From contig CAYTCJ010000001.1 of NCBI GenBank assembly GCA_964436545.1, positions 142,392 through 206,391 on the forward strand: DNA of 64,000 nt. Reading direction: 5' to 3'. Origin of the DNA: an uncultured Candidatus Saccharibacteria bacterium. GTDB lineage: Bacteria; Patescibacteriota; Doudnabacteria; UBA920. The position numbers and the translations under genes are program-made. Of this stretch, positions 3,175 through 57,389 are shown piece by piece. Each line of letters starts with the position of its first letter. The stretch's first letter is position 1. The notes below the pieces were generated by a model. It was not told where the DNA came from. It did not search any database and was given only the letters and a program-made list of their open reading frames with translations.

Positions 3175-5148
3175 TAAACTGGAATCATTCAGTAAGTAAA
3201 GGGTTTTATTTTTTTCATCTACCACAAAATCTTTAAGGTTATTCCAGTTTGGATTGGTAAGGTTATAGACTAAATTACCTTGTTTATTCAATACCGTAAC
3301 CCGTTTTCTGGTTGGTTCCAGTATGTAGAGATTTTTGGTTTCCACAGAAGTAAAGATTTTTTTAGCTCCGGACAAAGGTTCGATTAAATTAGTTTTAAAC
3401 TCAGTCGGGTTGCCTGCATAGTATTTAATTATGCCATTGGGTTTTAGGAAATAAATACTGCCATCAATGGCAAAATCAACAATGGCTTTACTGTCTTCGG
3501 GGTTTAAAGTTAAGGCAATTTCGGGTTTGGCTAGGGTATTGTTTAATACCGCAAAACTCATGAGTTGGCTTTGGCCTATATTTAACATGTACAGTCTTTG
3601 TTTGGTGCTGTAATAGGCTAAATTAACGCTATCGGGCAGGCCGGGAACCGAAGAAGTGTAATTATCGGTTAGAGAGTTATTTTTGCTATCCCATAATTTT
3701 ATACCCAGGCCATCGTACACAGCAGTAAGGGTAGAGGAAAGCCTTTGCGAATAAATGGCTACTGAGTTGAGGGAAATTTCGTTATCTTTTATGGTATGGG
3801 TTTGTTTGTTGTAACTAATGAAGCGATTATTGGCATAGACTGCGAAGTGTTCGGGAAAATCATGTAAATTTTCGGCATTGGCTAAAACGCCCAAATTTTC
3901 GCTGGTAATTTCCAAAGTTTTTTCCAGTTTGCTTTTAACGGCATCTAAGGCGGTAAGCGTATCAGTTAGGAGAGTTTTTTGTGCATCGGTGCGGGGAGTT
4001 ATGTTGTTTAAGGCGTTTAAAGCTGAGTTTAAATATTGTCTGGCAGCCGGATCGTCTTTATACAACAAGGCAGATTCCGCATCACTTAAATTTTTTTGAG
4101 CCACGGTAATGGCTTGCTCGATTTTGGCGTTTGTAACTTTGCGGTCTTTAAAATACAGAGCCACAAAAACTTGGAAAATTAAAGCTACACATAACACACA
4201 AGCGGAAGCAAAGAAAAATTGTTTTTGCGGAGAGTATGACTTAAAATTTTTAAGACTTAACCAGCCTGATTTTTTTACGGACTGAAAAGTTTTAGTGAGC
4301 CAAGGTAGAAAATTAAAAGTACGCAAATTAATTTTTTTGGTTTGGGCGGCAAAATTTTGGAATTGCAGTTTTTTATTGGGATTAACAATGGCCAAAATAA
4401 AACTTTTAAGCTTAAAGCCCCAAGTGGGTTGGTTAATTCCGCTGGTTTCAATATATTCTTCCAGATTTATTTCTTCATCGGGGAGAGTGCCGGCCATGGC
4501 CTCCTCGGCAATAATGGCCCCTAAGGGCACCTTACCGCCCGAATTGGCTTTTAGAATATCTACAATGTGCGCAGTGGATTTTAAGAAGTTTTTTTGATGC
4601 AATAAGCCTTGGAGTCTATCTAGGGCTATGAGGTTAAATAATTGCGAGGTGGACAGTAAAATTAAATCGTTGAGTTGGATTTTGCCGGAAGCGAAGTTTT
4701 CAAAAGTTTTTACCGCATTGGATTTTTCCGGCGAACAAGCAAGGTCGGTTACTTGATTATCTCTAAAGAGCAGAGCGGTAATTTTTCCCACTGTGGAAAT
4801 ATGAAATAGATTGTTTTGTTTAACCGCAATTATACCATTGAATTTTAGGACCCAGTGAGCTAGGCCTAAAGTAATAAGTTTGCTTAATTCTTCGTTAACG
4901 TTGCTGAGGGAGGTTTCAAAAGTCTCCGGTGAGTTGGATTTGTCAAAGGTGCGTTTAATGGCGGAAAGTATGCTTAAACAAATCTTTTTAGAGGGCTCGA
5001 GGAGTTCCGGAGTGGTATCGGTAATTTCGGCTACAATAAAACATTCATTATTTTCGCCTTTAAGCTTTTCTGCCACGACAAAAACAAAGCCGGTATTACC
5101 GTCTTCCGGACCTAATTGAATTTTAGCGACCTGTGATTCCAACTCCAT
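3154..5148 (-). CDS. hypothetical single-pass membrane protein (about 664 aa)
   Basis: Long ORF with one TM segment (FFFASACVLCVALIFQVFVALYF) and a beta-rich C-terminal part. Start trimmed to the ATG at 5148 to avoid overlap with the divergent gene. Confidence 0.7.
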   Translation of the reverse strand: MELESQVAKIQLGPEDGNTGFVFVVAEKLKGENNECFIVAEITDTTPELLEPSKKICLSILSAIKRTFDKSNSPETFETSLSNVNEELSKLITLGLAHWVLKFNGIIAVKQNNLFHISTVGKITALLFRDNQVTDLACSPEKSNAVKTFENFASGKIQLNDLILLSTSQLFNLIALDRLQGLLHQKNFLKSTAHIVDILKANSGGKVPLGAIIAEEAMAGTLPDEEINLEEYIETSGINQPTWGFKLKSFILAIVNPNKKLQFQNFAAQTKKINLRTFNFLPWLTKTFQSVKKSGWLSLKNFKSYSPQKQFFFASACVLCVALIFQVFVALYFKDRKVTNAKIEQAITVAQKNLSDAESALLYKDDPAARQYLNSALNALNNITPRTDAQKTLLTDTLTALDAVKSKLEKTLEITSENLGVLANAENLHDFPEHFAVYANNRFISYNKQTHTIKDNEISLNSVAIYSQRLSSTLTAVYDGLGIKLWDSKNNSLTDNYTSSVPGLPDSVNLAYYSTKQRLYMLNIGQSQLMSFAVLNNTLAKPEIALTLNPEDSKAIVDFAIDGSIYFLKPNGIIKYYAGNPTEFKTNLIEPLSGAKKIFTSVETKNLYILEPTRKRVTVLNKQGNLVYNLTNPNWNNLKDFVVDEKNKTLYLLNDSSLLKLTLP

Positions 5149-5868: not shown

Positions 5869-6105
5869 ATGAATGAAATCCAAAGTTTATATTTAGAATT
5901 TTTGCTAAATTTTCCGGAAAACTTAAGACCTTTGGTGTCTATTGGTTTAGCCGTGCTTTTGGTGTATGCCCTGTTTAAGGTGGTAAAAAAACAGTTTATA
6001 TATATTGTTGCTCTGGTGGTTTTACTCCCTGCATCGGTACCGATTTTAAAAAATATTTGGCAAGGGGTGGTAATGTTTATTAAGTTTTTGTTGAACACAA
6101 AGTAG
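5869..6105 (+). CDS. small membrane protein (78 aa, two predicted TM helices)
   Basis: Two hydrophobic stretches; the overlapping minus-strand ORF 5823-6098 is less protein-like. Confidence 0.45.
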   Translation: MNEIQSLYLEFLLNFPENLRPLVSIGLAVLLVYALFKVVKKQFIYIVALVVLLPASVPILKNIWQGVVMFIKFLLNTK

Positions 6106-6157
6106 AGAAGTATTTTTAAAAAGTTTATTGTCGATAATCAAATTGCTATATCTAGTA

Positions 6158-6266
6158 GCCTCGGTGAAGGAATGCCTGCACTCCGAAGCTGTGAATAGGG
6201 GGAGTGCCTGCACTCCGAAGCCTCGGCGAAGGAATGCTTGCACTCCGAAGCTTTAGCGTAGGAGTG
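6158..6266. repeat. three tandem 30-32-bp units ending in GCACTCCGAAGC, plus a terminal hairpin
   Basis: Units at 6158-6189, 6190-6221 and 6222-6251. The tail CTCCGAAGCTTTAGCGTAGGA recurs inverted at 18383-18404. Confidence 0.8.
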
Positions 6267-6342: not shown

Positions 6343-6345
6343 TTA

Positions 6346-6422
6346 GTTAGCAGTTAGCAGTTAGCAGTTATCAGTTATCAGTTATCAGTTATCAGTTATC
6401 AGTTATCAGTTATCAGCAATCA
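6346..6422 (+). repeat. heptanucleotide tandem array (11 units: GTTAGCA x3, GTTATCA x7, GCAATCA x1)
   Basis: Counted directly; lies between the candidate lexA promoter and the lexA ATG. Confidence 0.9.
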
Positions 6423-10142: not shown

Positions 10143-11024
10143 ATGTTAAGTCTACTAACAATTTTACATTATTTGATTGCTGCAATTGTTGACACTTTGG
10201 ATAAATTTTTAATTTCCAAAAGAAAGATTCAGCCCGTGGCTTATACTTTTTGGAGCGTGATTACAGGTTTAGGAATTTTGGCAGTTTGGCCGTGGGTGTA
10301 CGAAAAAATTAGTTTAGGGCAAATGGGCCTAGACTTACTTTCGGGCGTGTTATTTAGTTTGGCCTTATATGTATTTTTAAAAGCCTTGTCCCAAGGTGAA
10401 GTTTCTCGAGTAATTCCGTTTATATTCGGGTTAGTACCCATATTTGATTTGCTGATTGGAAAAATTGTGGGACAAAATGCTTTATTCAGCCAAGAAATTT
10501 CGGCTATCTGTTTATTGGTACCCGGAGCCTTGATTATTTCCTACAAACCAAATTTTTGGGGAAAGCATTTGGTATTAAAGACCATGTCTGCCTTTTTGTG
10601 GAGCTGTAATTTTGCTTTGTGGCAATTTGTTGCCAAAACCGGAAATACGTTTAACCATTTTATGTTTAATCGGTTAGGGGCGGCCGGAATTTTAATTTTG
10701 TTTTTGGTTTGGCCGTACTACCGAACTTTGGTTTTTAAAAGAGAAACGGAAAGTAAACGTAAAGGCACAGTTGGTTTGTTTTTATTTAAACAAGTTTTGG
10801 GCGGGGCGAATATGATTTTTTTCAGTTGGTTGATTGTAGTGGGTAAAATTCCGTTGGTAAATGCTTTGCAGGGGTTTAGGTATGTGTTTTTATTCTTAGG
10901 AGCGTTATTCCTAAGTAAGAAAATGAAGCATTTATTAGAAGAAGATATTACTTCTAAAGTGGTAATGCAAAAAGTATGTGGGTTAGTTTTGATTATTTTA
11001 GGCACATTAGTATTATTTTTATAA
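10143..11024 (+). CDS. DMT/EamA-like multi-pass membrane transporter (tentative)
   Basis: 293 aa with about 10 hydrophobic segments; family call is by general resemblance only. Confidence 0.5.
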   Translation: MLSLLTILHYLIAAIVDTLDKFLISKRKIQPVAYTFWSVITGLGILAVWPWVYEKISLGQMGLDLLSGVLFSLALYVFLKALSQGEVSRVIPFIFGLVPIFDLLIGKIVGQNALFSQEISAICLLVPGALIISYKPNFWGKHLVLKTMSAFLWSCNFALWQFVAKTGNTFNHFMFNRLGAAGILILFLVWPYYRTLVFKRETESKRKGTVGLFLFKQVLGGANMIFFSWLIVVGKIPLVNALQGFRYVFLFLGALFLSKKMKHLLEEDITSKVVMQKVCGLVLIILGTLVLFL

Positions 11025-11025
11025 T

Positions 11026-11191
11026 CAAGGACCTACGCTCTTGCCACTTTAGACTTGGCAGAGCCAAGCCCTTAAAGTGGCTTTGGTCAATTTCTTCGTT
11101 AAAATACTGTGGTTTTTGTCGCCGTAGCTCCACTACGCCTCCAAAAATCCTCGTATTTTGCCTAGAAATTGCCTCAAAAGCGTAAGTCCTG
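11026..11191 (+). mobile_element. MITE-like structured repeat, copy A
   Basis: Terminal inverted repeats CAAGGACCTACGC/GCGTAAGTCCTG; flanked by ATAAT on both sides; starts 1 nt after the stop codon of the upstream gene. Confidence 0.75.
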
Positions 11192-11199
11192 ATAATAAA

Positions 11200-11238
11200 G
11201 AATACGGACTTCTGGGACATTCCCAGAAGTCCGTATTC
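11200..11238 (+). other. perfect 18-bp stem hairpin just upstream of the GH gene RBS
   Basis: GAATACGGACTTCTGGGA-CAT-TCCCAGAAGTCCGTATTC; ends 13 nt before the ATG at 11252. Confidence 0.7.
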
Positions 11239-11251
11239 TGGGGGAATATGA

Positions 11252-12232
11252 ATGAAAAAAAATTTGTTAAAATTATTGATTGGTTTTGTGGTAATTTTGG
11301 TTTTTTTATCTTTCTACGCCGGCAAAAAGGCTAAAACAATTGTTTACGGGATTACTTTTAGTCCTTACCAAGCAATTGAGTTAGGTTTAGATTGGCGGGC
11401 AACTTATTTGGCGCTTTTAGATGAAGTTGGCGTTAAACATTTGCGCTTGAGTGCGTATTGGAACCGAGTAGAGCCAAAGGCCGGCGAGTTTGATTGGACC
11501 GATTTGGATTTTCAAATTCAAGAAGCGCAAAAGCGAAAGGCGCAAATTGTTTTAGCCGTAGGCCGGCGTTTACCACGTTGGCCGGAGTGTCATGACCCAG
11601 AATGGCTTGCCAAAAAAGATTTTGCCCCAAGTTTAATGGCTTATGTGGAAGCGGTGGTGAATCGTTATAAAAATAATCCGGCGGTGGTTATGTGGCAGGT
11701 GGAGAACGAAGCCTTTCATTCGGTGTTTGGCATTTGTCCTAAATTAGACACCGCTTTGTTCGATAAAGAGATTGCTTTGGTAAAACAGTTAGACCCCGGC
11801 CGGCCCGTAGTCATTACCGATAGTGGCGAATTATCTTTGTGGCTGAAAGCTGGAAAAAGAGGCGATGCGTTTGGCTCTACTTTGTATCGGCACGTATTTT
11901 CCGATGTGTTTAACCGTTATTGGATAAACTATAATCCGTATTGGCTTTATCGGGCAAAAGGTGGTTTAATGAAATTATTGAATGGAAAAAAAGAATTAAT
12001 GATTATTGAGCTTCAGGCCGAACCCTGGACTACTAAGGGAATTTTAGGCACCTCCATTGAAGAGCAGTTTAAAACCATGAGTATGGAAAAGTTTAAAACC
12101 ATACTTTCCGTAGGCAAAGCGATTGGTTTTGAAAAACAGTATTTATGGGGTGGGGAATGGTGGTATTGGATGAAGCAAAACGGGCACCCGGAATTCTGGG
12201 AAACAGCAAGAATATTAATGAACAAAAATTAA
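11252..12232 (+). CDS. membrane-anchored glycoside hydrolase (clan GH-A TIM-barrel-like)
   Basis: N-terminal TM anchor. The HLRLSAYWNRVEP motif and QVENEA (catalytic NE-type motif) are typical of GH-A hydrolases; exact family unknown. Confidence 0.65.
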   Translation: MKKNLLKLLIGFVVILVFLSFYAGKKAKTIVYGITFSPYQAIELGLDWRATYLALLDEVGVKHLRLSAYWNRVEPKAGEFDWTDLDFQIQEAQKRKAQIVLAVGRRLPRWPECHDPEWLAKKDFAPSLMAYVEAVVNRYKNNPAVVMWQVENEAFHSVFGICPKLDTALFDKEIALVKQLDPGRPVVITDSGELSLWLKAGKRGDAFGSTLYRHVFSDVFNRYWINYNPYWLYRAKGGLMKLLNGKKELMIIELQAEPWTTKGILGTSIEEQFKTMSMEKFKTILSVGKAIGFEKQYLWGGEWWYWMKQNGHPEFWETARILMNKN

Positions 12233-12237
12233 AAAAT

Positions 12238-12402
12238 TAGGACTTCCGCTCTTGCCACTTAAACTTCGGCAGAGCCGAAGTTCTAAAGTGGCTTTGGTCA
12301 ATTTCTTCGTTAAAATGCTCCGTTATTTGTCGCCGTAGCAAAACTACGGCTCCAAATATACTCGCATTTTGCCTCGAACTTGACTCAAAAGCGTAAGTCC
12401 TA
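12238..12402 (+). mobile_element. MITE-like structured repeat, copy B
   Basis: TAGGACTT...AAGTCCTA termini; differs from copy C at one position by eye; begins 5 nt after the GH stop codon. Confidence 0.8.
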
Positions 12403-12483
12403 AAATGACAAAAACGACGAAAGCTTTGTCTATTAGTAGCATACTTTTTGTCAATTTTGTTCATTTGTGTAAATTTTGTCAAT

Positions 12484-13245
12484 ATGAATAACATTGTTGG
12501 TTTGGATATTGGCGGAACTAAAATCAATGGCGTGGTGGTTAGTGGAAAAACCATTTTACAAGAACTTACAGTGGCAACCCCCAAAAGTTGGCCGGAATTT
12601 AAAGTTGCCATTAAAGCCATGGTTAAGCAGTTAAATGCAGGGTATAAAATTTTCGCAGTGGGAGTAGGGATCCCTGGGGCAATAAATAACCACGGCAAAG
12701 TGCTTTATGCTCCCAACTTACCCTATTTAGTCAACCGAAATTTATTAGGTTTTTTACAAACCTTAAGCGTTAAAAAGATAAGTATTGAGAACGATGCCAA
12801 CTGTTTTGCTTTGGCGGAAGCTTATTTGGGGCAAGGACAAGGTTTAAAAAATTTTATAGGCATAACTTTGGGCACGGGGATTGGCGGAGGTTTAATTTCC
12901 AATGGGCAACTGTATGTTGGATTGCATGGGAGCGCATGCGAAGTCGGGCATATGATGGCAGACGAGCGCAATACCTATGAGGAATTATTCCAAATTTATC
13001 GGGAACAAAATAATTATTCGGCTTTGGGGAAATTATTAGGCCGACTGTGGGCGGATATTTATAACTTAATAGATGTGGAAGCGATTATTTTAGGCGGGAG
13101 TGTAACCAAATCCGCCAATCAATTTTTGGCTTATGCTTTGGCGGAATCACAACAGAGAATTTTAAATAAGCGTATCCGGCCCAAAATAATTATTTCTAAA
13201 TTAAATAATGCCGGCTCTTTAGGCGCGGCATTATTACCTTTATAG
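12484..13245 (+). CDS. ROK-family sugar kinase (glucokinase-like)
   Basis: IVGLDIGGTKI N-terminal ATP motif and a GSACEVGH ROK signature region. Start set at the ATG at 12484. Confidence 0.85.
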   Translation: MNNIVGLDIGGTKINGVVVSGKTILQELTVATPKSWPEFKVAIKAMVKQLNAGYKIFAVGVGIPGAINNHGKVLYAPNLPYLVNRNLLGFLQTLSVKKISIENDANCFALAEAYLGQGQGLKNFIGITLGTGIGGGLISNGQLYVGLHGSACEVGHMMADERNTYEELFQIYREQNNYSALGKLLGRLWADIYNLIDVEAIILGGSVTKSANQFLAYALAESQQRILNKRIRPKIIISKLNNAGSLGAALLPL

Positions 13246-13407
13246 GACTTCCGCTCTTGCCACTTAAACTTCGGCAGAGCCGAAGTTCTAAAGTGGCTTT
13301 GGTCAATTTCTTCGTTAAAATGCTCCGTTATTTGTCGCCGTAGCAAAACTACGGCTCCAAATATACTCGCATTTTGTCTCGAACTTGACTCAAAAGCGTA
13401 AGTCCTA
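13243..13407 (+). mobile_element. MITE-like structured repeat, copy C
   Basis: Nearly identical to copy B; its first three bases TAG form the stop codon of the ROK kinase gene. Confidence 0.8.
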
Positions 13408-18212: not shown

Positions 18213-18453
18213 ATGATTTATTGTAACCGATAGACAGTCGGCACAAAGTTAATAATTAAAATTATTATAACAAAAACGTTAATTTTTGCCAAATTGTTTT
18301 GATTGAAATATAATATTCAAGTTAATTAAAAAATAAAGATTAAATGCTAAAAAAAATCGTCTTAGATTTAGAAACGCATCCGTCCTACGCTGAAAGCTTC
18401 GGAGGATTGCTTACCACTGTAAATAAAAGATTATTTTGTGAAGGTAGGTGTCT

Positions 18454-19032
18454 ATGCTAAAAAAAATCGTTTTAGACTTAGAAACGCAAAAGTCGTTTGA
18501 GGAAGTGGGAGGAAGAGGGAAAAATCATTTGTTAAAAATTTCTGTTTGCGGGATCTACGATTATGCCATAAATAAATACAGCGTGTTTCGCGAGCACGAA
18601 ATTCCAAAATTAGAAAATATTTTACAAACCGCAGATTTGGTGATTGGTTATAACATAAAAGATTTTGACTTTGAAGTCTTAAAACCTTATTTGAATTTTG
18701 ATGTTCATACTTTACCTTACTTGGATTTGTTGGAGGAGATTGGAAAAAAGTTAGGCCATCGACTTAAATTGCAAGATGTGGCAGAAGCCACTTTAGGTTC
18801 GGGTAAATCGGGTTCGGGTAAGGAAGCTTTACTCCTGTATAAACAAGGGCGGTTTGGGGATTTGGAAAAATATTGTTTGGATGATGTGAAGATCACCAAA
18901 CAACTGTATGATTACGTGACAAAAAACCAGAAGTTGTTGTATAAAGATTTTTTTAAAGTCAAAGAACTCGCGTTAAAAATCCCGGAGGCAAAACAAAGAG
19001 TCGGGGTAATGCATCAAGTAGCGCTTTTTTGA
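18454..19032 (+). CDS. RNase H-like 3'-5' exonuclease family protein
   Basis: LDLET...GYNIKDFDFEVL...CLDDV pattern of DEDD-type exonucleases. Start set at the ATG at 18454. Confidence 0.65.
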   Translation: MLKKIVLDLETQKSFEEVGGRGKNHLLKISVCGIYDYAINKYSVFREHEIPKLENILQTADLVIGYNIKDFDFEVLKPYLNFDVHTLPYLDLLEEIGKKLGHRLKLQDVAEATLGSGKSGSGKEALLLYKQGRFGDLEKYCLDDVKITKQLYDYVTKNQKLLYKDFFKVKELALKIPEAKQRVGVMHQVALF

Positions 19033-19139: not shown

Positions 19140-20039
19140 TTGTCAAAGTTAAAAATCCCCAGCATAATTATTTTTGTAACCGTCTTAATTTATTTTTTAA
19201 GTTTGGTTTTTTCCGGTCGCTGGGTTTTACCTCAAATTATATCTTTCGGAGCGCTATCGATTCACTATTACGGAATAGTTATGGCTGTGGCAGTGGGTTT
19301 TGGTTATAAATTGGCCATGCACCGAACGCAACTTTATGAAATAGCTTTACCTTGGGCGGAAAAATTATTTTTTTGGGTAATTATTGGCGGATTGGTTGGA
19401 GCTAGAATTTATCATGTTTTTTCATCGGTTAGTTATTATTCTTTGCACCCGATGGAGATTTTAAAAGTTTGGCATGGCGGTTTGTCTATTTACGGCGCTT
19501 TGATTGGTGGATTTCTGGCTTTGCTTCTGTGGAAAAAACTTACAACTTACCTGCCTTGTCGGCAGACAGGCAACTTACCTGCCTTGTCGGCAGACAGGCA
19601 ACTTACAACACTTCTAAATTGGCTAACTCCCTCGCTCATTCTCGGTCAAATTATTGGTCGGTTTGGAAATTTATTTAATTACGAAGTTTATGGTTACCCG
19701 ACTAATTTACCTTGGAAGTTATTTGTGCCCAATGAATTTAGAGTTTTGGGTTATGAAGCTTTTGCTTTCTATCACCCGTGGTTTTTATATGAACAAATCG
19801 GCTTAATTTTAATTTTCATCCTCTTTAAGGTGTATTTTAATTTAAAATCCGAGCGCTTGTTTGTTTACTACGTTTTATTGTATAATTTAATGAGATTTGG
19901 TCTGGAATTTTTAAGAATTGATAGCCATTTCATTGGGCCTTTTAGGCAAAATGCTGTGGTGAGTTTATGCTTTGCGGTGGGGGCTTTGGGTTTGATAATT
20001 TATTGGAGAGTTTTAAAATCAGCTAACAATGCGTCTTGA
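19140..20039 (+). CDS. lgt: prolipoprotein diacylglyceryl transferase with an in-frame repeat insertion
   Basis: Lgt motifs (HYYGIVMAVAV, GARIYHV, WHGGLSIYGALIGG, GRFGNLFNYEVYG). Confidence 0.9.
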   Translation: MSKLKIPSIIIFVTVLIYFLSLVFSGRWVLPQIISFGALSIHYYGIVMAVAVGFGYKLAMHRTQLYEIALPWAEKLFFWVIIGGLVGARIYHVFSSVSYYSLHPMEILKVWHGGLSIYGALIGGFLALLLWKKLTTYLPCRQTGNLPALSADRQLTTLLNWLTPSLILGQIIGRFGNLFNYEVYGYPTNLPWKLFVPNEFRVLGYEAFAFYHPWFLYEQIGLILIFILFKVYFNLKSERLFVYYVLLYNLMRFGLEFLRIDSHFIGPFRQNAVVSLCFAVGALGLIIYWRVLKSANNAS

Positions 20040-20781
20040 TTTAACCAAATATCATAAATTTAGCGCCGGGGCCTTAAGCGCCTTGTATGTTTGGGTGCTG
20101 TATAATTGGACTACCCCGGTACCTATTTTTAGGTTTCTTTTGCCCGCATTTTTATGCATCTTGGGACTAACAGCGTATTATAATTTAAAATATTTAACCA
20201 CAGGGCAAGCTAAAAATGTTTGGCCCATTTTGCGAGTGGCGCTTTTACAGTCAGCCGGGTTTTTATTATTTTTTGTTATGCCTAGCGCGCCGGCCCGAAT
20301 AATGTTTTTGATGATCTCTTTCATTTTTTTGTTTATTTCGGAATATTTAATTTTAGATTTTTCGGAAAATATTTTATTTAACGAAGTGATTTTAATTTCC
20401 TTTGGGTTTTTTTACGGGTTTAACGGACTCTTGTGGAATTTTCCGACTTTTAATTATATCGGTCTCTTGGCCTTATTCGTAGTGTTAAGTTTATTAACTC
20501 GGTGTTTTTATGAATTTGCACCTTTAACCGCTAAGGCGAAATGGATAAACGCTTTGGTTTTGGCTTTTTTATCGGCACAAATTTTTTGGGCTTGTTTGTA
20601 TTTACCTTTTCATTTTTCGGCATTAGCGGTGATTGGGTTTAACTTGTATTATTTATTAGTCGGCTTAAATTATTTTTATATTTTTAATACTTTAACGGAA
20701 AAGAAATTTAAATTTTATGTCGGTTTGTCCGGAGTGTGCATTTTACTGGTAATGCTCACCACGCCTTGGAAAATTTTATAA
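20029..20781 (+). CDS. hypothetical multi-pass membrane protein (250 aa)
   Basis: ATG overlaps the lgt stop; 7-8 hydrophobic segments. Confidence 0.6.
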   Translation: MRLDLTKYHKFSAGALSALYVWVLYNWTTPVPIFRFLLPAFLCILGLTAYYNLKYLTTGQAKNVWPILRVALLQSAGFLLFFVMPSAPARIMFLMISFIFLFISEYLILDFSENILFNEVILISFGFFYGFNGLLWNFPTFNYIGLLALFVVLSLLTRCFYEFAPLTAKAKWINALVLAFLSAQIFWACLYLPFHFSALAVIGFNLYYLLVGLNYFYIFNTLTEKKFKFYVGLSGVCILLVMLTTPWKIL

Positions 20782-20782
20782 T

Positions 20783-21012
20783 CAGGGCTTACGCTCTTGC
20801 CACTTTAGACTTGGCAGAGCCAAGCCCTTAAAGTGGCTTTGGTCAATTTCTTCGTTAAAATACTGTGGTTTTTGTCGCCGTAGTTCCACTACGGCTCCAA
20901 AAATCCTCGTATTTTGCCTGGATCGTGATGATTTGGCTTGAGTTCGGGCTCAGCCCGAACTTTAAAGCCAAATCAAGCTCTTGTCGAAATTGCCTCAAAA
21001 GCGTAAGTCCTG
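20783..21012 (+). mobile_element. MITE-like structured repeat, copy D, carrying a nested 66-bp palindromic insertion
   Basis: Same subfamily as copy A; flanked by ATAAT on both sides; extra segment 20920-20985 is absent from copy A. Confidence 0.75.
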
Positions 21013-21086
21013 ATAATCTTTTCTGCCTGAGCGTATCGGCAGAATAGGGCTATCGCTTTACATTAATTATCATTTAACCCTTACCA

Positions 21087-26525: not shown

Positions 26526-26623
26526 GTTCACAGATCACTGATAAACACTGATAACACAGATGATGTAAGGTGAGGTATCTGTATTGGGTTCACAGATCAC
26601 TGATAAACACTGATAACACAGAT
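26526..26623 (+). repeat. two exact 36-bp direct repeats separated by 26 bp
   Basis: GTTCACAGATCACTGATAAACACTGATAACACAGAT at 26526-26561 and 26588-26623. Confidence 0.9.
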
Positions 26624-26861: not shown

Positions 26862-29800
26862 ATGCAAAGATTTAAATCACTTATAACTTTAAAGGTCTCA
26901 GTTTTAACCTTTGTGGGCCTGTTCCTCTTAGTTGGAACGGTTTTGGCTTTGGCGCCCAGACAAATTACCACTACCAAAGCTGAAAATTGTTACAATGCCC
27001 CGGAAGTTGCCACTTTAAACCCATTTCCAGTGTCTTGGAATGGGGTTACTGGCAGTGATTGTACTGATGCACCGGTGATTGCGATTAGAAATGCCAATGG
27101 GGGCAGTTATGCGCAAAGTGCCAGCGCCCAAGTGGGTGAAGAGTTAAGAGTCAGAATTTATATTCACAATGGTGCTCAGCAAGGTTTAGATACCAACTTA
27201 ACTACCTCTTTAGGGGTAAACGGGGGTATGTATATTAATGGAAATAACATTTCCATGACAGCGACAGCCAGCCGAGGTGATGGTAATGGCGGATATATCC
27301 CGACTAATTCTGTGAATGGTTCTGTGAATGTCGATTTGCCCAGCGGGGCTACTTTGGAAATGATTCCGGGAAGCGAGGAATTTTATGACTATCAGGCTAA
27401 CCGAATCTATTCCGGTTCCGCCGGTTTTTACGGACAGAGCGGAGTTTTTGACATGCAAAATATGGAAGCTTGTTTTGAGTTTTCTAAATTCTTTGTTTTT
27501 AGAGTTAAAGTGATTGGTGAAACCGGCGGGGGTATAAACCCTCCTGCAAATCCCGGCTCTGGTTGGTTAACTGCCAGTTTAGCCGGCACGGTGCCCAACC
27601 AATGCTTGTATAAAGCTAGAGTGCAATGGGATACGGAAAATATGTCCCAAGTGTTGGTGACTGTTTCCAATCCGGAGCAAAATTCCGACAATTATTATGG
27701 TAACGACGTAGTCTTTTCCTATTCGCCAAACAGTGACGAAACTGTTAATTGGATAAATCCTAATGATGGTTATAGGTTTACCCTGTGGGAAGTAAATCCT
27801 GCCAGCGGTGGTCAAAACATGAATGTGGCGGGACAAAATTTATTGGTTAAACACATTGCCGAGCAATGGGTAAGTGGTGGTGATGATAATTTTTGCCACA
27901 CTCCGGTAGCTGATTTAGTATGTTCTCCGGGCAGTCAAAATGCCATGGGGAATGACATTGTTTTATTTAATGCCCAAGGCGGGGATGAAACTTCCGAGTA
28001 TGTTTGGTCAGCCCCGGGTGGTTTTAACCAGCAAAGTAATGGGAAAAATTTTCATGTCACTTATCCGGCTCAGGCCAGTGGAAGTTTTACGGTCACAGTT
28101 TCCAATGCCGGACAGACGGCTGAATGTGTTGTGCATGTAAGTCCCAGAGAACAACAAAATACTAATTATGAATTACACGTTTATAATCAAAACGGTCAAT
28201 TAAAGGACAACGGAGAGTTTTGTGTGGGCGATACCCCACAATATAAAATTACCGGTAATGCTACCATTGCTGGGAGTAAAATTTTGTGGAGTTCTAGAAA
28301 AAATAACGTGCAAACCGGTGAATTTGATGCAGACTATGGTTTTACGTTAAATGCTCAAGGTAATTGGAGCGAATGGGGTTCCACTTGGAATAGTAGTCAT
28401 ATTGGTGATTGGGAAAAACAATCTAATGTTAACTATGTTTTAAAAACTGTAAGTTTTAGAGTGAAGGATTGTTCTAATACTCCTCCGCCTCCAGTGGCAG
28501 TTTGTCCAAGTCAAAATCTTTCTGGATACCCCACAACCATTAAAATTGGGGAATATGCAACTGTTTTAGCTCCAGCTGGTTGGAATGGCGGTACTTTAGT
28601 ATCTTCTAACCCAAATGTGGCTCCAGTTTTTGGTGGAAATAGTGTGGTTGGTAGAGCTCAAGGTAGTACTAATGTTTCTGGTACTGGCTTTACCGCACCA
28701 AACGGCGCCACCAATTGTGCTTTAGGTGCAGTAAATATTACTGTTACCCAAACTCAAACTCCTCCACCTTCAGCCGTGTGTCCAACTGGACAAAGTGTTT
28801 CTGTTTCTCCTGCCTCAATTAAAGTAGATGAGTATGCTACAGCTTATGCGCCTAGTGGCTGGTATGGTGGATCTTTTAGTTCATCTAATTCCAATGTTGC
28901 CTCAATTTCCGGTAGTAGCATAAGAGGTAATGCTCAAGGTACTGTATCAATCTCCGGTTCCGGGTTTACTGCTTCTAACGGCGCCACCAATTGTGCTTTA
29001 GGTGCGGTGAATGTTTCCGTGACCCAAACGCAAACTCCGCCTCCGGCAGTGTGTCCGAGCGGGTATAGTTTAAGCGTTTCCCCAACTTCCTTTAAAGTAG
29101 GCGAATACGGTTATATTACCGTGCCCAGCGGATGGTATGGTGGAAATTTTACTTCTTCAAATACTTCAGTAGCTAATATATCCGGTATGTCGGTTTATGG
29201 TTACGGTGCCGGTACAGCCTCTATTTCCGGCTCAGGCTGGACTGCTTCTAACGGCGCTACCAATTGTGCTTTAGGTGCGGTGAATGTTTCCGTGACCCAA
29301 ACTCCGCCTCCGGCTGTTTGTCCAACCGGCGCTTATGTCTCTGTTTCTCCCGCTTCCGTAAAAGTAGGTGAATATGCTACAGCTTATGCGCCTAGTGGCT
29401 GGAGTAATGGGAGTTTTAGTTCTTCAAATTCTTCTGTGGCTTCTGTTTCCGGCAATAGCATAAGAGGTAATGCTCAAGGTGCTGTATCAATTTCCGGTTC
29501 CGGGTTTACTGCTCCTAACGGCGCTGTTAACTGTGCCTTAATCGGAGCGAGTTTAAATGTGACCATTCAGCCTCCTCCTCCGGCAGAATGTCCAAGTAAT
29601 GCCAGCGTGAGAGTGACTCCGGCTAATATTTATGTAAATGATTTTGCCACTGTTTCCGCTCCGGCTGGTTTTAGTAACGGAAGTTTTGTTTCTTCCAATC
29701 CTTCAGTAGCCAGTTTGGTAGATGGTGCCAGAGGTAATTCAATCAAAGGTTTATCGGCCGGTACGGCTTATGTGTCCGGAACTAACTGGACTGCGCCTAA

Positions 29801-32411
29801 CGGGGCTGTTAATTGCAGTTTAAGCAGTGATTCAATTACAGTAAGTAATCGACCAATTCAGCCTCCGGCAGAAGTTACCGCCAGTGCCACCGCTACCGCC
29901 AGTGCCACCGCTTATGCCAGCTGTCCAGATGGCACCAGAGCCAGCGCCAGCGCTTCGGCCAGTGCCACTGCCACCGCGACCGCGAGCACCAGAGGTGAAG
30001 CGGAAAAGTTAGCTTACGAAAGGGCCTATGCTCAAGCTGAAGCTATGGCCTATGCCCAAGCTGAAGCCAAGGTAGTTTGTAAAGAATTACCCCCACCGCC
30101 TCCAGCTCAATTAACCTGTTCCCCAATTCAACAAACCGCGGATGTTAACCAGACTGTGAATTTTTCCGCTAATGGCGGAAATGGGACTTACACTTGGACC
30201 GCCAACGGCGCCGTAATTACCAGCGGTAACGGCAGTCAATTTAGCACTCGTTATACTCAAGGCGGCAGTAAAGTGGTAAGTGTAAGTAGCGGAAATCAAA
30301 CGCAAAATTGTTATGTGCAAGTTAATCAAGTTCAAACAGAAGCGTTAACTTGTACCACTTTAACTCCGGAAGTGGAAATTAACCAAACTGCCAATTTTAG
30401 GGCTACCGGCGGGGCGACCTCGGCTTACGCTTGGCAAGCTTTGGGAGCTAATCCGGCCAGTGGCAACGGACGTGATTTTAGCACTAAATTCAGTTCCGCG
30501 GGTTATAAAACCGTCTTTGTGCAAAATGGTTCTGCTACCGAAAGCTGTTCGGTGAGAGTTAAAGAACCTGTCCAGTCCAATGCGGAAATGGAATTGGTAA
30601 AGACCGTTCGAAATCTTACCGACAATACCGACTTTAGTCATAACGTAAGCGCTAAACAAAACGATAAAGTAGAATACAAAATTTTTGTGAGAGCTTTAAC
30701 CGCTACTGCTTTGCGCAATGTTAGAGTTACCGACGAAATGCCTTTCGGTTTAATTTACGAAGCCGGTAGTTTAAAAGTGGACGGTCAAAGCTCCAATCCG
30801 GGCTTGACGAGTGGTGGTTTAGTGTTTGATACGGTTAATCAAAATGGGATTACCATTACTTACCGAGCGACGGTAAATGTGAATAGTGGCACCCTTACCA
30901 ATTTGGCCCGAGCTACGGCCGATAATGCCCAAAGTAAATTAGATCGAGCCAATATTACTGTAGTGCCGGTTGTTCAAGGTCAACCAACTTTAAGCATAAC
31001 TAAAGAAGTTAGAAACTTAGGACCTTCTCAGACTACTAACTTTACTTCTTCGGTAAATGCCAAAAAGTCCGATACCGTTCAATATCGCATTACGGTTAGA
31101 AATGTGGGCAATGCCACAGCTAACAATGTGGTCTTAAGCGACTCCAGCATTATTATCAATTCCATTACCGGTTTGTCTGTTTCCAAAACTTATTCCGGCA
31201 CCTTGTCAAACGGTTTGAATTTAGGCAGTTTGGCTCAAGGTGAAAATGTCATTATCACTTACAATGCCAATGTGTCCATTGAGCAGGGTGAAATTAGAAA
31301 TACCGCTACGGTCTCGGCTTCTAATGCTTCTACCGAAAGAGCCATTGCTTTAGTTAATGTGATCAAAGACAATGAACCACCGGTCAATCCGCCGGGCGGA
31401 GGGAGTACTAATATTATCAACACTTGTGTAAACAATTCCTGCAACAACACGAATATTGTTTACATCAACCAAACCGGAGGCACTGTGCCGGCAAATGACT
31501 TTAGACAACTTTCTATTTCAAAGTTAGTCAGAAGTATTAATGGTGGAGCGTTCCAAGACAGTGTAAGCGTTAACAATAACGATACCGTGGAATTCGAAGT
31601 CATTGTAAGAAATACAGGGAATCAGGTAGTTAATAATGTCATCTTAAACGATACCTTTAGCTCTAATTTGTATTTGGTTTCCGGTACGGTGAGAGTAGAT
31701 GGTAATTATTGGGGTGATAATATTAACTCAATTAATTTAGGTAGTATTTTAAGCGGTCAGCAAAAACGGGTGGTGTTCCAAGCTAGAGTTAATGGTGCTT
31801 CCGGTCAAACCGTACAAAATATTGCCAGAGTTTACGGCGATAATGCCAATCAAGTGCAGGATGACGCTTGGGTGTTTGTGCAAGGTGGTCAAGTGCAAGG
31901 GGGTAATGTAAATTTGGTTTATAGCAAAAAAGCAGTAAACGAAACCAAGAATACCGAGGCTACCGCTGTTGTAGCCAGTAAAGAAGATTATATTACCTAT
32001 ACCTTAACCGTAACCAACTCCGGTAATGTACCGGCTAACAGTTTTGTGATCACCGATGACTTAAGCCAAGTTTTACCTTATGCCGATATGGTAGATAACG
32101 GCGGTGGATCTTTATCCGGAAATATTTTGTCTTACCCCGGCATTACCATCCCAGCGGGGGGCAGTGTAAGTAAGAGCTTTAAAGTCAGAGTCAAATTTGC
32201 TTTAGCAGCTAACTTGTCTTACACCATGACTAACACTTATGGCAATACCGTAAGTATCCGCATTAATACCCCGCAAGTTTTAGGTGCTTTTGTGGCTCCG
32301 AAAACCGGTGGGCCTTCCGCTCAAATGGCTTCTATCTTTGGTACCTTAATGGTTGCCGGTATGGTAGTAGTGAGAAATAGAAAAAAAGTTTTGGAACTTA
32401 TCTGGAGTTAA
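26862..32411 (+). CDS. 1849-aa sortase-substrate surface protein (signal peptide, Ig-like/PKD-like repeats, DUF11-type repeats, C-terminal APKTG sorting signal)
   Basis: N-terminal signal/TM. Repeated modules. C-terminus is VAPKTGG, then a hydrophobic helix, then RNRKK, the classic sorting-signal architecture. Confidence 0.88.
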   Translation: MQRFKSLITLKVSVLTFVGLFLLVGTVLALAPRQITTTKAENCYNAPEVATLNPFPVSWNGVTGSDCTDAPVIAIRNANGGSYAQSASAQVGEELRVRIYIHNGAQQGLDTNLTTSLGVNGGMYINGNNISMTATASRGDGNGGYIPTNSVNGSVNVDLPSGATLEMIPGSEEFYDYQANRIYSGSAGFYGQSGVFDMQNMEACFEFSKFFVFRVKVIGETGGGINPPANPGSGWLTASLAGTVPNQCLYKARVQWDTENMSQVLVTVSNPEQNSDNYYGNDVVFSYSPNSDETVNWINPNDGYRFTLWEVNPASGGQNMNVAGQNLLVKHIAEQWVSGGDDNFCHTPVADLVCSPGSQNAMGNDIVLFNAQGGDETSEYVWSAPGGFNQQSNGKNFHVTYPAQASGSFTVTVSNAGQTAECVVHVSPREQQNTNYELHVYNQNGQLKDNGEFCVGDTPQYKITGNATIAGSKILWSSRKNNVQTGEFDADYGFTLNAQGNWSEWGSTWNSSHIGDWEKQSNVNYVLKTVSFRVKDCSNTPPPPVAVCPSQNLSGYPTTIKIGEYATVLAPAGWNGGTLVSSNPNVAPVFGGNSVVGRAQGSTNVSGTGFTAPNGATNCALGAVNITVTQTQTPPPSAVCPTGQSVSVSPASIKVDEYATAYAPSGWYGGSFSSSNSNVASISGSSIRGNAQGTVSISGSGFTASNGATNCALGAVNVSVTQTQTPPPAVCPSGYSLSVSPTSFKVGEYGYITVPSGWYGGNFTSSNTSVANISGMSVYGYGAGTASISGSGWTASNGATNCALGAVNVSVTQTPPPAVCPTGAYVSVSPASVKVGEYATAYAPSGWSNGSFSSSNSSVASVSGNSIRGNAQGAVSISGSGFTAPNGAVNCALIGASLNVTIQPPPPAECPSNASVRVTPANIYVNDFATVSAPAGFSNGSFVSSNPSVASLVDGARGNSIKGLSAGTAYVSGTNWTAPNGAVNCSLSSDSITVSNRPIQPPAEVTASATATASATAYASCPDGTRASASASASATATATASTRGEAEKLAYERAYAQAEAMAYAQAEAKVVCKELPPPPPAQLTCSPIQQTADVNQTVNFSANGGNGTYTWTANGAVITSGNGSQFSTRYTQGGSKVVSVSSGNQTQNCYVQVNQVQTEALTCTTLTPEVEINQTANFRATGGATSAYAWQALGANPASGNGRDFSTKFSSAGYKTVFVQNGSATESCSVRVKEPVQSNAEMELVKTVRNLTDNTDFSHNVSAKQNDKVEYKIFVRALTATALRNVRVTDEMPFGLIYEAGSLKVDGQSSNPGLTSGGLVFDTVNQNGITITYRATVNVNSGTLTNLARATADNAQSKLDRANITVVPVVQGQPTLSITKEVRNLGPSQTTNFTSSVNAKKSDTVQYRITVRNVGNATANNVVLSDSSIIINSITGLSVSKTYSGTLSNGLNLGSLAQGENVIITYNANVSIEQGEIRNTATVSASNASTERAIALVNVIKDNEPPVNPPGGGSTNIINTCVNNSCNNTNIVYINQTGGTVPANDFRQLSISKLVRSINGGAFQDSVSVNNNDTVEFEVIVRNTGNQVVNNVILNDTFSSNLYLVSGTVRVDGNYWGDNINSINLGSILSGQQKRVVFQARVNGASGQTVQNIARVYGDNANQVQDDAWVFVQGGQVQGGNVNLVYSKKAVNETKNTEATAVVASKEDYITYTLTVTNSGNVPANSFVITDDLSQVLPYADMVDNGGGSLSGNILSYPGITIPAGGSVSKSFKVRVKFALAANLSYTMTNTYGNTVSIRINTPQVLGAFVAPKTGGPSAQMASIFGTLMVAGMVVVRNRKKVLELIWS
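28483..29865 (+). repeat. five tandem roughly 270-bp (about 90-aa) Ig-like repeats inside the giant gene
   Basis: Each unit runs PPP-(A)VCP...NGA(T/V)NCAL...V(T/S)VTQT. Long stretches of DNA identity occur between units, e.g. AACGGCGCCACCAATTGTGCTTTAGGTGC. Confidence 0.85.
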
Positions 32412-56859: not shown

Positions 56860-57249
56860 ATGGCTCGTATTGCAGGTATAAACATTCCCAACGAAAAAAC
56901 CATTGTGGCATCCTTACCTTATATTTACGGGGTGGGTTGGCCTTTGGCGCGAAAAATTTTAAATGAGGTAAAAGTTAGTCCTCATAAAAGAACTAAAGAT
57001 TTAACCGAAGTGGAATTAAACAAGATTCGCGATTATATTGAAAAGAGTTTTAAAGTTGAAGGGGAGTTAAAGCAACAAGTCTTGTTAAACATTAAAAGAC
57101 TTAAAGAAATTTCCGCTTATCGTGGTATTAGGCATATGCGGGGTTTACCGGTTAGAGGTCAACGAACTAAAACCAATTCCCGCACCCGCCGAGGTAATGT
57201 AAGAAAAACCGCAGGCTCTGGCAGAAAATCCGCTTCGGAAAAGACCTAA
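56860..57249 (+). CDS. rpsM: 30S ribosomal protein S13
   Basis: [11 protein letters not shown]-terminus and an Arg-rich C-terminus. Confidence 0.96.
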
Positions 57250-57250
57250 T

Positions 57251-57299
57251 TAGGATTTACGCTCTTGCCACTTAAACTTCCGCAGAGCCGAAGTTCTAA
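57251..57299 (+). mobile_element. 5' fragment of the MITE-like repeat (copy E)
   Basis: TAGGATTTACGCTCTTGCCACTTAAACTTCCGCAGAGCCGAAGTTCTAA matches the first roughly 49 nt of copies B/C; starts 1 nt after the rpsM stop. Confidence 0.7.
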
Positions 57300-57389
57300 T
57301 TAGCTTGTGCCAATCTGTAGAACATTCCGGAATTTCTTCTGAAAAATATTATTTAAAACGGATTCTAATTAGCTAATATTTAAAACTTT

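Follow-up and report, generated by a model that had tools for sequence, protein, structure and literature searches.

What kind of sequence comes to lie, time after time, directly behind the stop codon of a gene and in the same direction as that gene? This is the question raised by the 64,000-nt stretch of DNA analysed here (contig CAYTCJ010000001.1, positions 142,392 to 206,391; hereafter the window), whose proteins have their close named homologues in Candidatus Doudnabacteria (Patescibacteria, candidate phyla radiation), and which carries several copies of a structured repeat at gene ends. [quoted passage not shown] The family is genuine, new at the sequence level and recently active; it is ordinary in kind, and what sets it apart is the strictness of its stop-codon placement and orientation.

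A repeat finder recovered four full copies (members at 11027, 12238, 13243 and 20783) and a fifth member of 56 nt at 57244, corresponding to copies A to D and to the 5′ fragment E, all of them on the plus strand. The coordinates that an initial annotation of the window had assigned to the four full copies stand, as does its description of a family of roughly 165 nt in a single orientation; for fragment E the start at 57251 was retained, while the end placed at 57299 had to be moved to about 57317. The copies are the following.

Copy A: 11026-11191, plus strand, subfamily w1, 166 nt, CAAGGACC...GTCCTG, lying between the stop codon TAA (11022-11024) of an EamA-family gene and a hairpin at 11199-11239.
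Copy B: 12238-12402, plus strand, subfamily w2, 164-165 nt, TAGGACTTCC...GTCCT(A), lying between the stop codon (12230-12232) of a glycoside-hydrolase gene and the ROK gene.
Copy C: 13243-13407, plus strand, subfamily w2, 165 nt, beginning with TAG and sited between the convergent ROK and ScpB genes.
Copy D: 20783-21012, plus strand, subfamily w1, 230 nt, made up of a 165-nt copy and a nested 66-nt hairpin.
Nested hairpin in D: 20920-20985, plus strand, 66 nt, near-perfect, GATTTGGCTTGAGTTCGGGCT / AGCCCGAACTTTAAAGCCAAATC.
Fragment E: 57251-57317 (end approximate, from nhmmer), plus strand, 5′ fragment.

Between copies B and C only a single base has changed, at position 135 of 165, as had been noticed by eye, and copies A and D are 97.6% identical once D is reduced to 165 nt by removal of its nested hairpin. 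This hairpin takes the place of one base of the long arm, falls outside the family consensus and has no second copy in the window or in any fetched locus. Fragment E retains 89% identity to B and C across its first 49 nt and is decayed thereafter; its apparent right end GGATTCTAATTAG was considered as a decayed inverted repeat and rejected, since it aligns with the native spacer of relatives. No additional copy appeared on either strand of the window when it was searched with the two most conserved 13- and 15-mers allowing up to three mismatches, in agreement with a profile search. The element has no conserved reading frame and no frame open in all copies, and its translations, used to fish for spurious gene calls, found no match among 5.8 billion proteins.

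As for the hairpin at 11199-11239 that directly follows copy A, it has a 19-bp stem and no T-run on the plus strand. Its stem shares GGACTT...AAGTCC with the inverted repeats of the element, a resemblance that we judged to be probably due to chance.

Mobility of the family is demonstrated directly by empty syntenic sites. The EamA-glycoside hydrolase-ROK-ScpB block is found in relatives with tight spacers and without the element, in loci whose proteins show decreasing identity to those of the window (L014, with a 90% identical glycoside hydrolase; L010, 82%; L015 and L016, 71%; L022, 64%), and sites A, B, C and E were all empty in the relatives checked, whereas no alignable empty site was available for D. 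At site B, the empty site of L014, AATTAAAAATGAC, is exact to the base what remains of the window once the element and one AAAAT are taken out (AATTAAAAATGACAAAAACG in L014 versus AATTA-AAAAT-(element)-AAAAT-GACAAAAACG in the window). This reconstruction rules out a site-specific core as well as duplication of TA. For site A, the orthologue in L010 shows a single TTTTTATAAT at that gene end, and at site E the spacer between the genes for ribosomal proteins S13 and S11 measures 140 nt in the window versus 54-56 nt in relatives whose S11 is 92-93% identical. Taken together, the empty orthologous sites and the one-base difference between B and C show recent, lineage-restricted transposition.

Beyond the window, an exact-pattern scan covering one genome per prokaryotic species found the element in a single metagenome-assembled genome (MAG), Candidatus Doudnabacteria JBBRWU01, on four contigs. 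A subsequent profile search added a fifth copy in this MAG, bringing the total to ten, five in the window and five in the MAG (L001a, L001b, L002, L003 and L004). The copy missed by the exact patterns was L001b (positions 3363-3547 of L001, minus strand), which follows another, identically oriented copy at a distance of about 520 nt downstream. Three subfamilies could be distinguished, namely A and D, then B, C and E, and finally the MAG copies, with around 82% identity between subfamilies and 93-99% within them. Among the MAG copies, L001b and L003 have a common extra hairpin of 21 nt, and L002, a variant of 129 nt, carries a short new hairpin where the others have the tip of the long arm. 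Related loci from outside the MAG, about 230 kb in all, contained no copy, and none was detected in 3.7 kb beyond the window (a Logan contig reached via identical proteins), in IMG/VR scanned with three patterns, or in plasmid and phage collections searched by blastn, and the four matches that the exact-pattern scan returned from JGI metagenomes were all chance occurrences in unrelated GC-rich DNA. The only gathering-level match of Rfam covariance models in the window was a tRNA, with nothing relevant up to an E-value of 10.

The 21-nt extra hairpin of L003 (5796-5816) and L001b (L001, about 3405-3426) is nearly identical to a palindromic unit of the window. This 22-nt palindrome, CCTGCCTTGTCGGCAGACAGGC (also given as CCTGCCTTGYCGGCAGRCAGGC), occurs as a tandem pair within the coding sequence of lgt (19550-19571 and 19578-19599), each unit being followed by AACTTA. 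The lgt frame stays open through the palindromes, and the window Lgt has there a 12-residue loop insertion relative to an orthologue. By analogy with the Rickettsia palindromic elements, the unit gives the impression of another mobile palindrome, far smaller than the MITE and able to persist within coding sequence.

The ends of the MITE correspond to those initially described. The terminal inverted repeats extend over 12-17 bp and read TAGGACTTACGC...GCGTAAGTCCTA, with CAGG...CCTG in A and D. Their extension to 17 bp carries one invariant C/T difference, TAGGACTTACGCT(C/T)TTG, and beyond position 17 the left and right ends diverge. Matching between the two repeats ranged from 12/12 to 16/17 positions and was found in every copy. 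The flanking sequences show the duplication of the target, as follows.

Copy A: ATAAT at 11021-11025 (left, containing the stop codon) and 11192-11196 (right), plus strand.
Copy B: AAAAT at 12233-12237 (left) and 12402-12406 (right), plus strand.
Copy D: ATAAT at 20778-20782 (left, containing the stop codon TAA at 20779-20781) and 21013-21017 (right), plus strand.
Copy L001a: flanking repeat ATAAT.
Copy L003: flanking repeat ATTAC.
Copy L004: flanking repeat CAAAT.
Fragment E: left flank CTAAT.

The duplication is thus 5 bp long at all clear sites and varies in sequence from site to site. The ATAAT pentamers reported around A and D were recovered as such, and duplications recur at L001a, L003 and L004. 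The presence of flanking duplications had been rightly recognized, with the correction that the repeat at B is AAAAT instead of AAAT and that the length is 5 bp rather than 4-5 bp.

The position of the copies relative to genes is the most striking property of the family. Nine of the ten copies have their GCTCTTGCCACTT-side end at a distance of 0-13 nt downstream from the stop codon with which a gene reading into the element ends (1 nt in A, D and E, the gene at E being that of S13, and 5 nt in B), and all ten are co-oriented with the upstream gene. Copy C entered the ROK kinase gene a few codons ahead of the ancestral stop, and the element's own TAG now ends the ROK ORF, as had been proposed. 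Likewise, the TAA stop codon is contained within the duplicated pentamer (NTAAT) not only at A and D, where this had been seen from the beginning, but also at E and L002. In the case of A, D, L002 and L003, the element separates a stop codon from a hairpin further downstream. The whole window has a positive GC skew, which identifies the plus strand as the leading strand, and around two-thirds of the ORFs picked as genes are on it. Since most window genes are on the leading strand, the window alone does not tell whether the elements follow the direction of genes or that of replication. Some slight help comes from the MAG copies, and the clearest case is L003, where neighbouring genes are found on both strands and the local GC skew is negative, yet the element is co-oriented with its upstream gene.

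Three null models gave the following proportions of insertions expected to be both stop-adjacent and co-oriented.

Uniform insertion in non-coding sequence: 8.7%.
Insertion at N[TA]AAT sites: 11%.
Insertion at a post-hoc extended motif (an A-tract 2-6 nt upstream plus the pentamer): 21%.

The census of ten copies from the window and the MAG hence supports a non-random position and orientation, as the initial annotation had anticipated, with nulls of 9-21% against the observed 9/10 (P ~7e-6 for nine of ten stop-adjacent copies under the extended-motif null). The A-tract plus pentamer is itself enriched, being present at 8 of the 10 element sites versus 28% of all gene ends. As the nulls are far below 9/10, target preference contributes to the bias but cannot be the whole story.

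With these data, the following scenario could be envisaged. A transposase supplied in trans, which we infer to be of the DDE type, would bind the 12-17-bp terminal inverted repeats and cut the two strands of an A/T-rich pentamer with a 5-bp stagger (the consensus of the pentamer being ATAAT, and its form often NTAAT), and repair of the staggered cuts would give rise to the 5-bp target duplication. The pentamer contains TAA and is regenerated by the duplication, so that landing on a TAAT stop keeps the upstream gene intact. In genomes as compact as these, an insertion probably does least harm when it precedes both the native terminator and the promoter of the following gene, and almost only stop-adjacent, co-oriented copies would remain. 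Orientation might derive from the asymmetry of the target or from selection acting on the RNA transcribed along with the gene, an effect reported for ERIC, and the two could also combine. It seems improbable to us, although we keep it in mind, that the stop-codon placement is due not to such passive survival but to a machinery directed to the 3′ ends of genes, or to a domesticated RNA switch coupled to translation termination that was spread by transposition through the operons of an ultra-small genome of the candidate phyla radiation.

Several observations weigh against the interpretation of the family as MITEs placed at stop codons by transposition and survival. One copy, L001b, is an exception to the rule of position, since it lies 83 nt from the nearest upstream stop codon, that of a truncated AbiEii-like ORF. 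The extended target motif was rejected as the full cause of the stop-codon bias, as it predicts only 21%; the remainder, we infer, would reflect survival bias, an orientation-dependent RNA effect or targeting directed to 3′ ends. No autonomous element with these terminal inverted repeats, and hence no cognate transposase, was found in the 64-kb window, in 36 loci, in about 230 kb of related sequence, in plasmids, in phages or in IMG/VR. The census is also small, with ten copies, and the exact-pattern scans of genomes and metagenomes would miss diverged relatives. Finally, the flanking repeats are imperfect at three copies:

Copy C: CTTTA / CTTTG, 4 of 5 positions matching.
Copy L002: TTAAT / CTAAC, 3 of 5 positions matching.
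Copy L001b: TAAAA / TATAA, 4 of 5 positions matching.

A further aspect of the family is its fold, a Y shape or three-way junction in which the terminal inverted repeats form the closing stem of two hairpins. Hairpin 1 consists of GCCACTT...AAGTGGC around an inner stem capped by GGC-AGA-GCC, and the long hairpin 2 has the tip GCCGTAG...CTACGGC. Fold energies ranged from -53 to -106 kcal/mol with z-scores of -8.5 to -10.9 versus dinucleotide shuffles (copy A, -64.2 kcal/mol and -8.5). Most of the sequence variation falls within hairpin 1, in its inner stem, and within hairpin 2, in its distal half; the basal half of the latter hardly varies, nor do the terminal inverted repeats and the GGCAGAGCC cap. 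When conservation was scored over 62 pairs in an alignment of eight sequences, standard pairs occupied from 91.3% (plus strand) to 97.8% (minus strand) of the cells, and sliding the partner columns by 1-3 positions as a control lowered pairing to 28-49%. The compensatory change in the hairpins that had been noted between subfamilies found support at ten pairs (22 cells) in which both sides changed between the three subfamilies, a figure reached by at most 3 of 500 column shuffles. Deriving from only three deep lineages, this covariation is supportive but not conclusive. Still, conservation of the Y fold through compensatory change suggests that the structure matters, either for mobility or for the host.

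Among the alternatives, the one that best survives, possible though doubtful when taken as a whole, is an RNA module of mobile origin that has been exapted and is kept because its sense RNA acts in the 3′ untranslated region (UTR) or intercistronic region. Such a module could be a barrier to 3′ exonucleases, a weak terminator or an ERIC-like switch coupled to translation, in which a ribosome that terminates translation would lie over the left inverted repeat, so that the closing stem could not form. The helices maintained by two-sided changes at ten pairs are compatible with it, as are the start of nine of ten copies within the ribosome footprint of a stop codon, the sense orientation of all of them, the location of A, D, L002 and L003 ahead of a downstream hairpin, and the occurrence of UUUGG...UUUCUU after hairpin 1. 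Precedents also exist, since the effects of ERIC on mRNA depend on orientation (PMC2229807) and bcr1-3 are transcribed in UTRs (PMC3446304). However, there is no U-tract past the closing stem, the element is absent from close relatives at each of the four sites that were checked, and the reverse strand folds at least as well in eight of eight copies (alifold, -77 versus -56 kcal/mol), with equal z-scores for both strands. Part of this energy gap is explained by base composition, as the element is C-rich on the plus strand, opposite to the host strand (GC skew on the plus strand of -0.09 to -0.20 in all copies versus +0.05 to +0.21 in the host). In the Watson-Crick-richest structure, the mismatches are C.A on the plus strand and would be G.U on the minus strand, an argument against the sense RNA that is reversed when the consensus fold is derived from the plus strand; in the 40 shared pairs, the asymmetry is 4 versus 1. 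The opposite proposal, that the antisense strand is the selected molecule in view of its 97.8% versus 91.3% pairing, was dropped, as it depends on which strand's fold defines the structure. Overall, we found no positive support for sense 3′-UTR RNA as the selected molecule, and either strand could be the one under selection.

A second alternative, which we regard as distinctly unlikely, holds that the fixed orientation reflects a portable promoter, with a -35-like TTG(A/C/T)CT located 17 nt from the right terminus and a -10-like element provided by the duplicated ATAAT driving the downstream gene. TTGNCT does occur at the same position in all copies, a consensus scan flagged TTGCCT-16-GATAAT at A and D, and the right junction of L001b reads TTGACT-17-TATAAT some 35 nt upstream of the next gene, which encodes 457 residues and has no Pfam match. 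Nevertheless, this is the only junction reaching 11 of 12 matches, most others having 7-9 of 12; the left end read outward scores about equally (6.7-9), by chance in A/T-rich flanks, and promoter-like matches in the region are not above those in shuffled sequences.

Movement as single-stranded DNA was also contemplated, the structured-DNA intermediate offered in the initial annotation being of this kind if it implied a hairpin-dependent process. IS200/IS605 systems generate no target duplication, lack terminal inverted repeats and insert 3′ of a fixed short target. That the family is a remnant of such a palindrome-associated transposon, or a REP-like element moved by an HUH enzyme, would agree with its extensive hairpins, its strict single orientation and the location of all window copies on leading-strand sequence. 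It is nonetheless highly improbable, being contradicted by the site-varying duplications, the exact empty site and the terminal inverted repeats; no fixed tetra- or pentanucleotide is found 5′ of all copies, and no Rfam match to omega or right-end RNAs was obtained.

Structured repeats that immediately follow ORFs, in the same orientation, are also known as the attC sites of integrons; these have R″/R′ core sites, and the gene and its site move together as a cassette. The weakest proposal, hardly credible in spite of the position of the element immediately 3′ of ORFs in constant orientation, its imperfect dyad symmetry and the three copies flanking consecutive genes from 11 to 13.4 kb, is that it represents an attC-like site or gene-cassette boundary, since the flanking genes are housekeeping ones (S13/S11, ROK, ScpB, EamA) kept in the same order in relatives without the repeats, the empty sites show that only the repeat was inserted, with a 5-bp duplication, and the ends lack RYYYAAC/GTTRRRY core sites.

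Returning to the MITE interpretation, the closest described analogue, as judged from published descriptions of its architecture and 5-bp duplication, is bcr1, found in the Bacillus cereus group. The element, of about 155 bp, is flanked by 5-bp direct repeats TTTAT, adopts a cruciform-like fold with two independent stem-loops showing compensatory changes, forms part of transcribed UTRs and lacks a known transposase (PMC3184786, PMC6542083, PMC3446304). The likeness extends to size (155 versus 165 bp), to A/T-rich 5-bp repeats (TTTAT versus ATAAT), and to the two stem-loops closed by the ends with their compensatory changes (PMC3184786), as well as to a patchy distribution among close relatives, a UTR or intercistronic location and a partner transposase not found for either family. 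The differences concern the host phylum and the near-absolute stop-codon adjacency seen here, which is not confirmed for bcr1. The plasmid collection searched by blastn, which includes plasmids of the B. cereus group, gave no match. Given that the host is not Bacillus, we file the family as an analogue of bcr1 and not as a member.

With ERIC/IRU of Yersinia and other enterobacteria, the family shares the condition of structured MITEs, and would also share co-transcription with neighbouring genes. De Gregorio and colleagues reportedly described, in J Bacteriol in 2005, a common orientation of those ERIC copies that adjoin or overlap stop codons, a bias that the present family resembles. ERIC differs in having a TA duplication, excluded here by the empty site at B, and one long 127-bp hairpin instead of a 5-bp duplication and a three-way junction, and there is no sequence similarity. 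Its copies are co-transcribed with neighbouring genes, and their orientation decides the effect on the mRNA (PMC2229807).

A/T-rich duplications of 5 bp are typical of Tn3-derived elements and of a few insertion sequence groups, and the inverted repeats of the Tn3 family are about 38 bp long and start with GGGG. Those of the family described here measure 12-17 bp and start with TAGG or CAGG, and no Tn3-like transposase was seen. The likeness to the Tn3-derived TIME elements lies in their direct repeats of 5 bp (sometimes 6 bp), often A/T-rich, such as ATTCT or TAATA (PMC13367494). The SPRITE, RUP and BOX repeats of Streptococcus pneumoniae resemble the family in being small structured repeats enriched downstream of coding sequences, SPRITE lying near 3′ termini (PMC3049150). 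By contrast, SPRITE looks like a terminator, has AAAA/TTTT ends and is not known to duplicate its target, and the pneumococcal repeats show a leading-strand orientation bias of only around 61-63%.

The reduced genomes found in the candidate phyla radiation are regarded as poor in mobile elements. A full-text literature search pairing MITEs with 'Candidate Phyla Radiation' returned nothing on topic. The present family is recently active in a lineage where such elements are little described, with relatives of 90% protein identity devoid of it at the sites checked. The genes that it flanks are ordinary, encoding an EamA-family transporter, a glycoside hydrolase, the ROK kinase, ScpB, Lgt, a sugar epimerase and ribosomal proteins S13 and S11. 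Even so, the element can rewrite gene ends, as in copy C, which supplies the ROK stop codon, and breaks operon spacers, including the S13-S11 spacer of the ribosomal-protein operon. Its strict placement offers a clean natural system for the question of targeting versus selection. From a practical standpoint, it may fragment short-read assemblies of these genomes, and it can give rise to false gene predictions and to wrongly placed stop codons.

Other repeats of the window, whose G+C content ranges between 35 and 44%, were also recorded. Two tandem units of 55 nt, 84% identical, follow the L7/L12 gene (1468-1577), about where the Logan contig of the same organism ends. An array of AGTTAGC/AGTTATC heptamers adjoins GC-rich direct repeats of 30-62 nt (GGAATGCCTGCACTCCGAAGC...) at 6345-6421 and 6157-6260, mostly in a spacer, with the GC-rich repeats overlapping a 65-aa minus-strand ORF (6046-6243). 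Upstream of the 1849-residue ORF 26862-32411, a perfect 36-nt direct repeat, GTTCACAGATCACTGATAAACACTGATAACACAGAT, occupies 26526-26561 and 26588-26623 of the spacer, 62 nt apart, and inside this ORF, three diverged tandem repeats of about 270 nt (66-80% identical) extend over 28677-29540, the region with the highest G+C content of the window (43-44%). Lastly, a 35-nt repeat starting with ATG (ATGCTAAAAAAAATCGTCTTAGATTTAGAAACGCA) is found at 18344-18378 and 18454-18488, two units 110 nt apart and 94% identical, at or near the start of the ORF 18448-19032.

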